Of a DNA stretch of 64,000 bases, positions 26,458 through 31,588 are shown piece after piece. Under the pieces are notes generated by a model that saw nothing but the letters and a program-made list of their open reading frames with translations, was not told where the DNA came from and searched no databases. This stretch comes from Candidatus Limnocylindrus sp. Lineage in GTDB: Bacteria; Chloroflexota; Limnocylindria; Limnocylindrales; Limnocylindraceae. The stretch spans positions 32,001-96,000 of the forward strand of contig JBBAWM010000003.1 in the NCBI GenBank assembly GCA_040397175.1. The letters are read 5' to 3'. Position 1 is the first letter of the stretch; every line of letters begins with the position of its first letter. A program made the position numbers and the translations under genes.

Positions 26458-28320
26458 TTATGCCTGGAGCCCGAACTGCATCGCCGCAAGTTCTGCGTAG
26501 AGTCCGCCCTTGGCGCGCAACTCTTCGTGTCGTCCGCGCTCCACGATTACACCGTGATCCAAGACGATGATCTGATCTGCGGAAGACACGGTGCTGAGCC
26601 GATGTGCAACCGCAATGGTGGTGCGACCTGCCATCGCGCGCTCCAACGCCTGCTGCACATGGCGTTCCGACACCGAGTCGAGCGCAGAGGTTGCCTCGTC
26701 GAGCAAGAGGATTGGCGGATCTTTCAAGAGAACGCGAGCGATCGCGAGGCGCTGACGCTCCCCTCCAGAGAGCTTGTAGCCGCGCTCACCCACCACCGTG
26801 TCGAGACCCTGTGGCAGCTCGTTCATGCGTTCGGCCAGCGAGGCCCCCTCGAGCGCCACAAGGATTTGCGCGTCCGACGCCTCTGGTCGCGCATAGAGCA
26901 GATTGTCGCGAATGCTGGCGTGCAGGAGGTGGGTCTCTTGCGTAACGACGCCAATCATTTCGCCCAGTGATCGCAGCTTGATCTGCCGCACATCGACACC
27001 GTCGAGCAGTACCGAGCCGTCACTTGCATCCCAGAATCGCGGGATGAGGCTGAGGATCGTGCTCTTCCCCGAACCCGATGGGCCAACCAGTGCGGTGAGG
27101 CTCCCCGGCTCGGCGGTGAACGAGATGCCCGTGAGGCCGAAGGAGTCGCGCCGATGCCGGCCGTGCCCCTCGGGTGGCTGCGGATAGCGGAAACTGACAT
27201 CACGCAGCAGTAGGTGCCCGCGAACACCGTCACGCGTCAGCGTGATCGCATTTGGCGCATCGACGATTTCAGGGACAAGGTCGAGGTAGGCGAAGATGCG
27301 TTCGAAGAGCGCCAGGCTGCCGCCGATCTCTACCTGGAGCCCAAGCAGCGAGGCGAGCGGGAAGAAGAGTCGGCTCTGCAGCGTGGTGAACGCCACGATG
27401 TCGCCGATCGTTGGCGCGTCAGCGGCACCAGCGACCGAGAGTGATCCGGCAACGAAGTAGACCAGCGCAGGAATGCCGCTGAAGACCACCTGCACCACCA
27501 CACCGACCCAACGACCGGTGAGTGCCTGTCGCAACTGCAGCGTGGCGAGCTCTGCCGATCGCTTGGTGAATCGCTCTGCGCCAGCCTCCGAGCGACCGAA
27601 TGATTTAGCCAGGAGCGCGCCACCCACCGAGAGGTGCTCTTCAGCGATGGAGGTGAGGTCGGCGAGCGCCGTCTGCACCTCACCGCTCGCCTTACGACGT
27701 GCCGCAGATGCCTGGGATGTGAGGAAGAGGAAGATCGGCGCCACCGCGATGCTCACAACCGTGAGGCGCCAGTCGATGATCGTCATCGCTACCAACGTTG
27801 AAGCCACAATGGCGATGCTCGACGCGAGGTTCGCCGCCGCATCGCTCACGACCGACTGCACCCCAGAAACGTCGTTGGTCAGGCGGCTCTGGATCTCGCC
27901 GGTTCGCGTCTCCGAGAAGAAGCGGATCGGCATGGACTGCACGTGTACGAACAGCGCGTTGCGCAGGTCGCGCATCACGAACTGGCCCACGGAGGCGGTG
28001 AGCCACGCCTGCGCGAGACCGATCGCACCGTTGATGATCGGCACGATAACCATCAAGCCGGCGTAGAGCGCCAGTAACCCAAGGTCTCGTTGTGGAATGG
28101 CTTCGTCGATCAGCAGTTTCAGGAGATACGGGTTGGCAAGCCCCAAGACGCTTGATCCGAGGATTGCCACGCCGATAATGCCGAGCCGCCCGCGATATGG
28201 TCCAAAGAATCTCGCTGCTCGGCGCAAGAGCGGCAGTGCCGCTCCGGCCGGCTTGGTCGGGCCTTGGCCCTCACCACCAAACATGTGGCCGCCGCGCCCT
28301 GGACCCATGCCACCGCTCAT
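26458..28320 (-). CDS. ABC exporter, fused permease/ATPase (MdlB/Sav1866 family)
   Basis: TM domain plus GPSGSGKS, LSGGERQR, LLLDEATSALD, AHRLST. Confidence 0.93.
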   Translation of the reverse strand: MSGGMGPGRGGHMFGGEGQGPTKPAGAALPLLRRAARFFGPYRGRLGIIGVAILGSSVLGLANPYLLKLLIDEAIPQRDLGLLALYAGLMVIVPIINGAIGLAQAWLTASVGQFVMRDLRNALFVHVQSMPIRFFSETRTGEIQSRLTNDVSGVQSVVSDAAANLASSIAIVASTLVAMTIIDWRLTVVSIAVAPIFLFLTSQASAARRKASGEVQTALADLTSIAEEHLSVGGALLAKSFGRSEAGAERFTKRSAELATLQLRQALTGRWVGVVVQVVFSGIPALVYFVAGSLSVAGAADAPTIGDIVAFTTLQSRLFFPLASLLGLQVEIGGSLALFERIFAYLDLVPEIVDAPNAITLTRDGVRGHLLLRDVSFRYPQPPEGHGRHRRDSFGLTGISFTAEPGSLTALVGPSGSGKSTILSLIPRFWDASDGSVLLDGVDVRQIKLRSLGEMIGVVTQETHLLHASIRDNLLYARPEASDAQILVALEGASLAERMNELPQGLDTVVGERGYKLSGGERQRLAIARVLLKDPPILLLDEATSALDSVSERHVQQALERAMAGRTTIAVAHRLSTVSSADQIIVLDHGVIVERGRHEELRAKGGLYAELAAMQFGLQA

Positions 28321-28364
28321 CGACGTAGACGCGCTGAGGTGAGTACGAGTGCTTCAGGTGTCAT
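28317..28364 (-). CDS. Putative leaderless upstream peptide MTPEALVLTSARLRR, ATGA-coupled to the ABC exporter
   Basis: TACAAT 7 nt before ATG 28364; its TGA overlaps the exporter ATG, which has no SD. Confidence 0.45.
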   Translation of the reverse strand: MTPEALVLTSARLRR

Positions 28365-28406: not shown

Positions 28407-28835
28407 CTAGTTTCCTGTCACCTCAAGATCAACGAACATGCCCTGCTGGTAATGGTCTGCGATGTTGCACATGAGCACATAGTGGCCGGCTGGCAGGTCG
28501 ATGGTAAAGGTGCCAGTGACCCCCGTCTGAAGGTCCCCGTACTCCCCGGGCGACGTGAGCTTCTCCTCGTCGAGGCGCATGGTGACAGGATCAACCTGGG
28601 CGACGAGGTCACGCCCCGGTACATCGGTTTGGATGATCACGAACTCATGGTCAATGTTGCCCTGGCTATCAATGTAGAAGGTGATCGGTCCTGCCACGTG
28701 GCTCGGTGTGTTTGTCGCGATCTTCCACTCCTTGACCGCCGCGATGATTGCGGTGGTCTTGACGATTTGTGCGCTCGCAATCGGTGCGCCAATCAAGACC
28801 AAGAGCAGTGCCCCAACTCCAACAAATCGCTTCAT
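28407..28835 (-). CDS. Secreted blue-copper cupredoxin (auracyanin/sulfocyanin-like)
   Basis: Signal peptide; DHEF plus CNIADHYQQGM (Cx4Hx4M type-1 copper site). Start at MKRFV (CACACT-6nt-ATG). Confidence 0.82.
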   Translation of the reverse strand: MKRFVGVGALLLVLIGAPIASAQIVKTTAIIAAVKEWKIATNTPSHVAGPITFYIDSQGNIDHEFVIIQTDVPGRDLVAQVDPVTMRLDEEKLTSPGEYGDLQTGVTGTFTIDLPAGHYVLMCNIADHYQQGMFVDLEVTGN

Positions 28836-28897
28836 GCTCTCAGTGTGCATCCGCCCTGGAGGAGCCGGTAAACCCACGTGTGCCGATCGGGATTCTC

Positions 28898-29788
28898 CTA
28901 GATTCCCGAACCCTCGCCCGCCACCTCATCGGTGCGCACACGCGCCTGAGAAAGCTGACTCCCAGCAGGAACGCTCTTCGTAAGCCATACGTTGCCGCCA
29001 ATCGTCGAACCACGCCCAACCGTGATTCGGCCAAGGATCGTTGCCCCCGAGTAGATCACCACGTCGTCTTCAATGATCGGGTGGCGAGGCTGACCCTTCA
29101 CCAGGTTGCCATCGTCACCCTTCGGGAAGCTCTTGGAGCCGAGGGTAACTCCCTGGTAGAGGCGCACGCCACTGCCAATGATTGCCGTCTCGCCAATGAC
29201 CACGCCGGTTCCATGGTCAATGAAGAAGCGCTCGCCAATCGTGGCGCCAGGGTGGATATCAATCCCCGTGGCTGAGTGCGCCGCCTCCGACGCAATGCGT
29301 GGAAGCAGCGGCACATTCAACGTGTACAAGAGGTGCGCCATGCGGTGATCGATCATGGCGCGAACGCCTGGGTAGCCATGCAAGATCTCGGAACGGCTGC
29401 GTGCCGCGGGGTCGCCGGCAAACGCTGTGGCGATATCACCCTCTACGAGCGTGCGGATTGCAGGGAGCTCCGCTGCAAACGCGGCAACCGCCCGATCAAC
29501 GTGATCGAGAGTGAGCCCCTCACCAGGTCGCTCCGCCGCGAACAAGACCGTGCATCGCCGAACGTGCTCGCGTAGACCGGCGAGCGCCGCCGCAAGGTGT
29601 GCGGCTACCGCTGCCTCACCATCGGCTGCAACGCCAAGCTCACGCGGGAAAAGTGCGGCACGAAGCTCAGCCAGCACGCGGGTAATCTCACCGCGCGATG
29701 GGCGGTCGCCTGCCGCCACCGCACCACCCGCGAGGGCGGCGTCGGCGGCGATCAGCGCGCGACTGAGTGCAGCAGCATCAACGCTCAC
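28898..29788 (-). CDS. cysE: Serine O-acetyltransferase (EpsC/CysE type)
   Basis: [39 protein letters not shown]; C-terminal Ile (EGSGI); GTGA overlap with cysK. Confidence 0.92.
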
Positions 29789-30774
29789 AGCGTGATGCCG
29801 TTCGCATCGAAGAGGCCCTCGTAGAGCGCGGTGCTCAGGTAGCGCTCGCCCGAATCTGGCAGCACCACCACGATGGTCTTCCCCGCGTTCTCCGGCAGGT
29901 GTGCCAACTTCAGCGCAACATGCGCTGCTGCACCGCATGAGATACCAACGAGAATCCCCTCTTCGCGAGCAATGCGACGCGCCATCGCGATCGCCTCCTC
30001 GTTCGTTACCAACTCCACCTGATCGATTAGCGTGAGGTCAAGAATGTCTGGCACGAAGCCGGCGCCGATCCCCTGGATCTTGTGCGGGGCCGGCTGATTC
30101 GGCTCGCCTGCGAGTCGTTGGGTAATGACCGGACTTGCCGCAGGCTCCACTGCTACAACACGCACCGAAGCGCCACGTCCCTTCTTGAAGTGACGTGCAA
30201 CGCCGGTGATCGTTCCACCGGTGCCGACGCCCGAAACAAAGATGTCGACCTTTCCTGCGGTGTCTTCCCAGATCTCTGGGCCTGTGGTGGACTCGTGAAT
30301 CGCTGGTCCCGCCTCGTTCTTGAACTGCTGCAGCAACACGTACCGCGCAGGATCCGATGCGGCGATCTCTTCGGCGCGCGCAATGGCACCCGACATACCC
30401 TTCGCACCTTCGGTGAGCACCAGTGTGGCGCCGTAAGCAACGATGAGCTTGCGTCGCTCGATGCTGACGGTGTCGGGCATGGTCAGCGTGACCTTGTAGC
30501 CGCGCGCGGCGCCCACCATCGCAAGTGCGATGCCAGTGTTGCCGCTTGTTGGCTCAACGATCTCCATTCCTGGCTTCAGCGCGCCGCGCTTCTCGGCGTC
30601 GAGCACCATGGCGGTGCCGAGGCGGCACTTTACGGAGTATGCGGGGTTGCGCCCTTCGATCTTGGCCAGCACGGTGGCGGCGGCGCCATCAGTCACGCGA
30701 TTCAATCGCACGAGTGGAGTTCGGCCAATAGTGAGAGCGTTGTCGGTAAAGATCTCTGGATTCTGAACAGTCAT
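29785..30774 (-). CDS. cysK: Cysteine synthase A
   Basis: [14 protein letters not shown] (PLP Lys), [29 protein letters not shown]. Confidence 0.96.
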
Positions 30775-30856
30775 CTTGGGTACCTCAGGCTACGTGGTGG
30801 GGTGGTGGAGTTCATCCGCCGCCCCCTCTGCCGTTTGGTCCCTGGTTGCGTGTGCC

Positions 30857-30949
30857 TCAGCGCGCGCAGGACGGCCCGAAGAAGAGCGACGGGCATCGAC
30901 AGATGCTCGGCTCGCCAGCGGCTTGGGCAATAAGGTCGGCTGCGGTCAT
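30857..30949 (-). CDS. Putative Cys-sensing leader peptide MTAADLIAQAAGEPSICRCPSLFFGPSCAR
   Basis: Manual translation; TACACT-6nt-ATG leaderless start; three Cys codons; ends 82 nt upstream of cysK. Confidence 0.65.
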   Translation of the reverse strand: MTAADLIAQAAGEPSICRCPSLFFGPSCAR

Positions 30950-31003
30950 GGGGGGAGTGTATCGCCTACGCGCGGAGGTCGTTACTGCAACGTCTCGCAA
31001 CCG

Positions 31004-31588
31004 CTAGATGCGGCGCATGACCCCATCAATGAAGCTAAGGAGGCTGCCCTTGCGAAGGGTGGGGGTGGTCCAGAGGCGCCAAAGCGCGGCAACAACCTTC
31101 AGTGCGAGGTAGATCGCAAGTGCCCCGGCCGCTCGCGCCATGACGTCGTGCACGTCAATCCGATAGGGCGGCACTGGGCTCGAGAAGTAGTTCGAGAACG
31201 CCTGGCTGATCTCAAGGCCCACCGCCATGATGCCGATCACGGCAAAGGCCGCCCGCCTGGCGTCTCCGTAGAGCGCAAGGGTTGCCAAAAAGAACGTTGA
31301 TGCGCCCATGCTGACCTGCACCAACAACCACTGCGTTTGCAGAAGAGCAGGATCAAAGTTCACGAATGGAATCAACCGGATCACATCGCTACCGAGCGGC
31401 GCACGCGACCAATCAGAGTTGGGGAATCCAAACGGTGCCCAAACGTAGGCGACGAGAGCGGCAAATGCGATAGTGCTCACCGTCGTTCCGCGGGATCGAT
31501 AGATGCGCTGCGACCGCTGCACGAACAGCACGACGAGGAAGCTAATGAGCCCCCCGATGATCCCCGTCCAGTCCCATTGCGCCAGCAT
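31004..31588 (-). CDS. VanZ-like membrane protein
   Basis: LIPF, GLEISQ, RIDVHDV pattern; polytopic; TAAAAT-6nt-ATG. Confidence 0.6.
   Translation of the reverse strand: MLAQWDWTGIIGGLISFLVVLFVQRSQRIYRSRGTTVSTIAFAALVAYVWAPFGFPNSDWSRAPLGSDVIRLIPFVNFDPALLQTQWLLVQVSMGASTFFLATLALYGDARRAAFAVIGIMAVGLEISQAFSNYFSSPVPPYRIDVHDVMARAAGALAIYLALKVVAALWRLWTTPTLRKGSLLSFIDGVMRRI

Follow-up and report, generated by a model that had tools for sequence, protein, structure and literature searches.

A conserved leaderless leader ORF with one fixed cysteine codon upstream of cysK-cysE in Candidatus Limnocylindrus, a candidate cysteine-sensing translational attenuator

An unannotated open reading frame (ORF) lies upstream of cysK-cysE in this Candidatus Limnocylindrus genome, at a promoter of leaderless geometry, and it is conserved among relatives with a UGU cysteine codon at a fixed position, further members of the same family being situated before other sulfur genes. 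We hold it to be highly probable that the element, in one form or another, is translated and acts as a leader responding to cysteine. As to how it acts, the balance tips modestly toward translational attenuation in response to cysteine: a ribosome that pauses at UGU17 would free the cysK ribosome-binding site. The points of interest are the single-codon design and the predicted inversion of the switch.

The window, the whole stretch of 64,000 nucleotides that was analyzed, holds the following features at this locus (SD, Shine-Dalgarno sequence):

30986..30999, minus strand: imperfect palindrome TGC-N8-GCA with its center about 43 nt 5' of the leader ATG; may bind a transcription factor
30956..30961, minus strand: -10 box TACACT, 6 nt 5' of the ATG at 30949; leaderless geometry, transcription start putative
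30857..30949, minus strand: leader ORF, unannotated, 30 codons, MTAADLIAQAAGEPSICRCPSLFFGPSCAR, with its TGA at 30859-30857
30902..30913, minus strand: strand A (codons E13-I16), predicted to form a local hairpin with strand 1 over the Ile-Cys codons when the ribosome is absent
30899..30901, minus strand: Cys17 codon UGU, invariant; putative sensing codon
30893..30895, minus strand: Cys19 codon UGC, present in cysK leaders only
30882..30892, minus strand: strand 1 of helix 1:2 (predicted ON helix), beginning 9 nt past the U of UGU17
30867..30875, minus strand: inner ON helix, coding strand GCCGUCCUG, overlapping the Cys28 codon; its predicted partner is the post-stop segment
30837..30846, minus strand: post-stop segment ACCAGGGACC, predicted candidate anti-SD
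30816..30826, minus strand: strand 2, G-rich, partner of strand 1 or strand 3
30799..30809, minus strand: strand 3, C-rich, of hairpin 2:3 (predicted OFF state)
30782..30786, minus strand: cysK SD GAGGU; the 3' end of the genome's 16S rRNA has CCUCCU
29785..30774, minus strand: cysK, cysteine synthase A (TIGR01139, 443 bits against a cut-off of 351)
28898..29788, minus strand: serine O-acetyltransferase gene (cysE-like, EpsC type), which overlaps the cysK stop; 5' end approximate

A preliminary description of this DNA had named the -10 box, the leaderless ATG, the 30-codon ORF, the 82-nt gap between the leader stop and the cysK ATG (30774) and the helix coordinates, all of which were correct on recheck. 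The downstream pair is also as described there, cysK exceeding the TIGR01139 cut-off and the gene after it exceeding that of NF041874 (EpsC-type serine O-acetyltransferase), with a score below the cut-off of the cysE model TIGR01172 (165.5 against 210.65). The leader frame is also open from an upstream TTG (47 aa); we took the ATG as the start because the position of the -10 box fixes it. The leader peptide had no NCBIfam or Pfam match, and an exact look-up in a collection of 15 billion proteins came back empty. Comparison of the leader RNA with Rfam gave no family, the sole match being a snoRNA model at an E-value of 5.9; a T-box reading was rejected given the lack of an Rfam match and the conserved frame.

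The spacing of box and start codon, likened in the preliminary description to that of many true genes, is indeed above chance. TAnnnT 6 nt before an ATG occurs 19 times in the window against 5.9 expected, a count that 0 of 100 shuffles reached. Genome-wide, the TAnnnT-to-ATG spacing of 1081 proxy genes peaks at 6 nt (103) and 7 nt (42), 145 cases before early ATGs altogether, with other spacings at 10 or fewer and a flat distribution before 4313 internal ATGs. Intergenic leaderless-type small ORFs (sORFs) of 8-60 codons number only 20 in the whole genome, and just four of them contain cysteine. Scanning 28700-31300 revealed no -35/-10 consensus promoter and, as had been noted earlier, no intrinsic (U-tract) terminator. 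Metatranscriptome contigs of relatives from seven runs (share of words 0.05-0.10) cover cysK and, in part, the spacer and leader; one such contig, of depth 4, spans the promoter into the leader start, for which DNA or read-through is a possible source, and we gave these contigs no weight.

Orthologues of cysK at no less than 85% identity were present in 18 of 61 genomes, and 17 of these had upstream DNA (two of the upstream regions being identical), the 18th lying at a contig edge. The leader ORF is intact in 17/17, with 30 codons, both C17 and C19 kept and TAnnnT held 6 nt before the ATG. Three further genomes came from a DNA search, among them the one with the divergent G065 leader MTAAELIACVAGEPSICRCPSFAMECCAS. 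Cys28 is missing in the G024 lineage, so that of the cysteines proposed earlier the first two stood up to comparison with related leaders and the third is not fully conserved. Across 34 distinct cysK leaders, which represent only three lineages, the variable columns of codons 2-17 fall 4/6/12 at codon positions 1/2/3, a third-position bias, and nucleotides 40-63 of the leader are invariant, third positions included. Codon 17 is UGU in all 17 cysK leaders found via the downstream gene, although UGU makes up 21% of the cysteine codons of the genome. Cys19 occurs in 34/34 cysK leaders and at that offset in none of the other classes. A dispersed cysteine cluster had been regarded as the key feature; the invariant element is instead one UGU at codon 16/17, the rhodanese and Limnocylindrus DUF4395 classes having a single cysteine. 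The CGA codon that follows UGU17 is not rare here (11.8 per 1000), and a tRNA scan of the genome found the tRNA-Arg anticodons TCG, GCG, CCG, TCT and CCT and no ACG.

The leader is one of a family, found in Ca. Limnocylindrus and its relatives, that has UGU at codon 16/17, usually preceded by GEP(S/C)I, and that precedes cysK-cysE, DUF4395 or rhodanese-SufE, all of them sulfur/cysteine genes. A second member in the same genome, about 6.7 kb outside the window (G000:C3:25251-25301, plus strand, MTSMQLRALEGEPSIC-stop), stands before rhodanese and SufE; it has 16 codons and ends UGU-UGA. Searching with the rhodanese protein recovered the leader at 21/22 loci, the remaining locus having 4 nt upstream. 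For DUF4395 the leader was found in 25 of the 26 genus genomes with that gene, the exception lying at a contig edge and one leader being without a TAnnnT box; no DUF4395 gene was found with PF14340 in the present genome. Rhodanese and Limnocylindrus DUF4395 leaders carry a single cysteine codon each, and UGU is invariant in the 21 rhodanese and 10 sister-family DUF4395 leaders found via the downstream gene. Altogether 39/41 genus genomes match some leader of the family. Among metagenome sequences we considered 117 stretches, leaving out 32 that were out of frame and 7 that were in frame and unrelated; these members were chosen by the GEP motif.

In the sister family, leaderless C-x-C leaders occur at 10 of 30 Pfam-found DUF4395 genes and at 4 of 14 cysE-cysK upstream regions, one locus being common to both sets. 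Their second cysteine codon is always UGU, mostly at codon 16, and GEP precedes Cys in only one genus; GEPSIC as a universal motif was rejected, most sister-family leaders being without GEP (9/10 and 4/4). Consecutive cysteines are found only late in the ORF, in the G065 lineage and two sister-family leaders. Sequence comparison suggests that the ancestral leader was probably CxC and that the first Cys became Ser in Limnocylindrus. Two sister-family leaders before DUF4395 (L307 and L312) are a further length variant, of 12-14 codons ending C-L-C-x-stop. In a genus clade without this cysK, the DUF4395 leader L263 (G061:C1:100050-103400) heads a string of rhodanese-ThiF, cysteine-synthase-like and Mec-like genes, the latter two named by inspection; the string resembles a sulfur-carrier cysteine route, and the leader family may serve an alternative pathway. 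A GEP pattern gave, in strict form, 0 matches in 247 genomes of three other families of the class; among 301 genomes of the phylum there were 14 matches outside the order, all out of frame or not before sulfur genes. The pattern is blind to leaders without GEP, and the limits drawn with it are a minimum.

The preliminary description had proposed two alternative helices overlapping the ORF, and this picture of mutually exclusive pairings is borne out as a conserved prediction. Because MAFFT misaligns the spacer of two divergent lineages, we assessed pairing sequence by sequence, by enumeration of ungapped helices, rather than by column covariation; a duplexfold test of the 5' boundary was uninformative. 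The proposed 11-bp pairing (30892-30882 with 30826-30816) is the strongest ungapped coding:spacer helix here, and in 34/34 cysK leaders the strongest such helix begins at +9 (31 leaders) or +8 (3 leaders) after the U of UGU17. The duplex has z<-2 in 30 of the 34. Its length is 11 bp in the present leader, G065 forms 13 perfect base pairs from a different sequence, and the G024 form is bulged; given that the pairing survives sequence change across three lineages, we take helix 1:2 to be real on the grounds of conservation. The helix at this register is not the strongest ungapped one in most sister-family leaders. The alternative pairing of G-rich and C-rich strands, hairpin 2:3 (30826-30799), is part of the minimum free energy (MFE) fold as had been suggested, and it carries two C-A mismatches. 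Taken as a whole, the leader has no unusual stability (z +1.1). In the ribosome-free MFE fold, strand A pairs with strand 1 in the A:1 hairpin, whose loop AUCUGU holds the Ile-Cys codons; across the cysK, DUF4395 and rhodanese classes of the genus this loop stays the same while the stems around it differ, and in the sister family the hairpin is present in just 2/10 GEPCIC leaders.

Folding of the 34 cysK leaders with the nucleotides under a ribosome masked gave mean pairing for helix 1:2 of 0.12 free, 0.70 with the ribosome on Cys17, 0.18 on Cys19 and 0.00 at the stop, and for hairpin 2:3 of 0.45, 0.21, 0.52 and 0.69, respectively. In nascent RNA, helix 1:2 formed in 34/34 leaders with the ribosome on Cys17, in 33/34 on Cys19 and in 7/34 with none. 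The earlier proposal had assigned helix 1 to the cysteine-replete state, in which these values predict little or none of it, and had held that a stalled ribosome blocks it, which applies to the full-length RNA with the ribosome on Cys19 and not to Cys17. We therefore reversed the polarity of the switch, because the paused ribosome is predicted to promote helix 1:2 rather than to block it. With Ile16 in the P site the helix starts 11-12 nt from the first P-site base. The mRNA channel is reported to hold 11 nt, and two frameshift hairpins at 11-12 nt to hinder the binding of tRNA in the A site (PMC7282821); given that such inhibition needs hairpins of specific length and structure, as described in PMC8861025, a braking role for the long helix 1:2 is speculative.

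The output predicted for this switch is at the SD of cysK. Averaged over the 34 cysK leaders, pairing of the SD with the post-stop segment was 0.66 with the ribosome at the stop versus 0.11 at Cys17, and pairing of the SD with coding RNA in the ribosome-free leader averaged 0.00, the partner of the SD sitting past the stop. We calculated the cost of opening the SD for a set of 103 leaders, from which one was dropped for want of an SD motif, and for the sister leaders found via the downstream gene. Opening was costlier by at least 1 kcal/mol at the stop than at Cys17 in 30/34 cysK leaders (the reverse in 1), in 8/10 GEPCIC leaders (the reverse in 0) and in 7/10 CxC leaders of the sister family (the reverse in 1; one start pick in this set, L319, is doubtful). 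In a position scan of 12 of the 34 cysK leaders the cost was about 5 kcal/mol for ribosomes as far as Cys+6 codons and rose to 8.2-8.8 past that point. For rhodanese leaders opening was costlier ribosome-free than bound in 19/23 (the reverse in 0), which is partly expected from masking alone, and Limnocylindrus DUF4395 leaders had the stop above Cys in 11/35 and the order reversed in 16/35. This measure of the SD core was a second try, picked after a wide one (-15..+3, 30 nt of cysK, mask from Cys+12) had shown no switch. Whichever of the four states was modeled, the mean unpaired probability of the SD in the 34 cysK leaders stayed near 0.3, and the SD:post-stop duplex reached z<-2 against shuffles in only 2/34 cysK leaders and in 7/36, 4/10, 0/23 and 0/4 leaders of the other sets. 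Several lineages each have a post-stop segment complementary to the SD, and the sequence of that segment differs among them.

The copy in this genome is the single reversal among the 34 cysK leaders, with SD opening at 6.3 at Cys17 and 4.8 at the stop, flat across positions and 3' contexts. When the ribosome occupies Cys17, only nascent transcripts reaching no further than nt 164 have helix 1:2 as their MFE fold; at full length it lies 6.4 kcal/mol above the MFE fold, which pairs coding RNA directly with the SD. Because only the nascent-RNA fold shows the switch, the model for this copy relies on kinetic trapping.

On the attenuator model, we infer that the ORF is translated, that ribosomes pause on it and that the pause responds to cysteine. 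With no ribosome, strand A would fold over the Ile-Cys codons and hold strand 1, hairpin 2:3 would form, and the post-stop segment would pair with the SD, stacking around hairpin 2:3, to give the OFF state. When Cys-tRNA is scarce a ribosome would wait with UGU17 in its A site, covering strand A and leaving the RNA from about 8 nt past the U exposed, and strands 1 and 2 could then form a long hairpin that captures the post-stop segment and makes the SD easier to open, the ON state. With plentiful Cys-tRNA the ribosome would unwind that hairpin and reach the stop, restoring the OFF fold. Expression of cysE would follow cysK by coupling, and Rho could add polarity. It is conceivable, and we put it forward tentatively, that the leader is a one-codon sensor, in which a single wobble-read UGU is sensitized by the GEPSI peptide and by the entry helix 11-12 nt from the P site; the helix would form at the mRNA entry only while UGU waits in the A site, acting at once as ON switch and as a brake on Cys-tRNA.

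The same sensor, with the same polarity, might act on termination instead, helix 1:2 serving as antiterminator against hairpin 2:3 as a U-less terminator or Rho pause site. Rho is encoded, above the TIGR00767 cut-off, the conserved hairpin 2:3 switches cleanly (0.21 at Cys17, 0.69 at the stop) where the unpaired probability of the SD is unchanged, and helix 1:2 is best supported in nascent RNA. On the other hand, there is no U-tract terminator, the spacer is short, SD-complementary post-stop segments of differing sequence are found in several lineages, and the mycobacterial leader that was tested was translational as reported in bioRxiv 10.1101/834739; we consider termination an unlikely output, though one of some weight. 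Much less probable is the original proposal, that a stalled ribosome blocks helix 1 and hairpin 2:3 hides a rut site, with Rho terminating at high cysteine. A C-rich tract does exist (17 C versus 7 G in 41 nt) along with Rho, a ribosome on Cys19 of the full-length RNA shifts the folds in the direction proposed, and Rho was suggested for actinobacterial cys leaders in PMC1262725, which itself grades that prediction "rather weak". But helix 1 is rare ribosome-free and absent post-translation, sister leaders have no Cys past codon 16/17 able to block the helix, and, contrary to a rut output, the C-rich tract is predicted to be about 0.5 unpaired in every one of the four ribosome states, with only 32-41 nt from the G-rich strand to the cysK start in the four leaders measured.

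Sensing might also reside in the peptide, nascent GEPSIC being an arrest peptide that responds to free cysteine or another sulfur metabolite, with Cys-tRNA supply secondary. GEP(S/A/C)IC occupies codons 11/12-16/17 in leaders of two families and three target classes, its codons change synonymously (four Gly codons, two Glu codons, and AGC, TCG, TCC and TCA for Ser), the residue two before Cys is only Cys, Ser or Ala, and a single Cys is a weak sensor by classical standards. This reading we judge improbable, given that C-x-C and the RNA core persist in most sister-family leaders without GEP, that the same codons form strand A, so that RNA constraint explains part of the conservation, and that the metagenome members were selected by the motif. 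Least probable of all, to the point of being very doubtful, is an incidental ORF within an untranslated, riboswitch-like structured RNA, or control by the promoter alone through the palindrome. It would suit the third-position invariance of nucleotides 40-63, the conserved palindrome and the encoded Rrf2-family regulator, but every leader found via its downstream gene retains the start codon, the frame, the length and the Cys register, the codons show a third-position bias, no Rfam family matches, and a comparable sORF before efp is not conserved.

The TGC-N8-GCA palindrome occurs at 32/33 distinct cysK and 31/34 DUF4395 promoters, against a background of about 0.011 per window, and at 0/21 rhodanese promoters and 0/14 in the sister family. 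It is perfect in the G065 lineage and lies inside the end of the upstream gene in most DUF4395 loci. One Rrf2-family regulator gene is present (G000:C1:17455-17844), and the palindrome is a candidate regulator site that may form a second regulatory layer. The gene upstream of the leader (31004-31588, minus strand), which encodes a membrane protein with weak VanZ likeness that scores under the Pfam cut-off, gives way to other genes in some relatives, in which promoter and leader stay. Elsewhere in the window, a leaderless-type 15-codon ORF, MTPEALVLTSARLRR (28317-28364, minus strand), has a stop overlapping the start of an ABC transporter gene (26458-28320) and is a possible regulatory leader or coupling ORF. 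A ten-codon sORF with a PP pair precedes efp (L340; G000:C2:114196-114228, minus strand); some sORF is found at 8/30 efp loci and PP at only 1/30, and the PP-containing sORF is probably there by chance.

If the one-codon reading is true, the family shows how single-Cys leaders arose from a two-Cys (CxC) ancestor, and a leader has been reused as a three-operon cysteine regulon in a lineage with a streamlined 1.4-Mb genome. A search of openly available papers and preprint main texts found no description of such Cys leaders in Chloroflexota, and the main text of PMC13212565 (Limnocylindria) makes no mention of cysteine, leaderless, attenuation, sulfur or sORF. In the literature found, cysteine-sensing leader ORFs were demonstrated only in mycobacteria, relying on poly-Cys runs; the present family would extend the principle to an abundant freshwater Chloroflexota lineage, with similar targets reached by convergence, and suggests that one Cys codon may be enough for sensing. 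The 16-codon UGU-UGA rhodanese leader and the fixed helix register provide small, testable constructs for the minimal number of regulatory codons, which also bear on whether peptide or RNA context amplifies the pause.

In classical attenuators such as trpL and hisL, the position of the ribosome on the leader ORF selects between alternative helices. Mutually exclusive helices overlapping the leader ORF are shared with these systems, here as conserved predictions; unlike them, the leader has no U-tract terminator, a leaderless geometry and one regulatory codon. TnaC stalls the ribosome in response to tryptophan. Like the arrest peptides TnaC and ErmCL, the leader keeps certain residues at a set distance from its start, immediately ahead of the putative stall site, whereas its motif is not kept across the whole family and ligand-dependent arrest is hypothetical. 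Against Rho-dependent attenuators of the tna type, Rho is likewise encoded, but the predicted folds show no ribosome-dependent exposure of the C-rich tract.

Closer likenesses are found in actinobacteria. The metL leader of Streptomyces lividans (PMC8079986) is leaderless, with 29 aa, spaced cysteines, hairpins and no typical terminator, and it too precedes a sulfur amino-acid operon; it is described as a Met leader, with no mechanism and no GEPxIC motif. The actinobacterial cys/cbs leaders of PMC1262725 similarly place Cys codons before cys operons with no conserved terminator, and Rho was suggested there; as described, they have Cys runs near the stop and no conserved hairpins, in contrast to the conserved alternative helices here.

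The precedent cited in the preliminary description, leaderless poly-Cys sORFs in mycobacteria, is documented in bioRxiv 10.1101/834739, where Ms5788A, Rv0815A and Rv2334A are attenuators. Like these, the present leader is an unannotated leaderless sORF of about 30 codons, leaderless here as judged from geometry, and has no terminator; several sulfur operons have separate leaders in both cases, with cysK1-cysE among the mycobacterial targets along with a small hydrophobic gene that has the sulfurtransferase gene cysA2 after it. Sequestration of the SD is the output in mycobacteria and, as predicted, here. We did not file the leader as a member of the mycobacterial type because it lacks both consecutive cysteines and direct pairing of a Cys tract with the SD, a contrast with another phylum that is drawn from the main text of the preprint. 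The mycobacterial sensor is 2-8 consecutive Cys codons, whereas here it would be one fixed UGU, with none consecutive (C17-R-C19...C28). In Ms5788A the Cys tract pairs with the SD and a stalled ribosome blocks this OFF helix; here, unlike Ms5788A, the paused ribosome is predicted to let the ON helix form ahead of itself.
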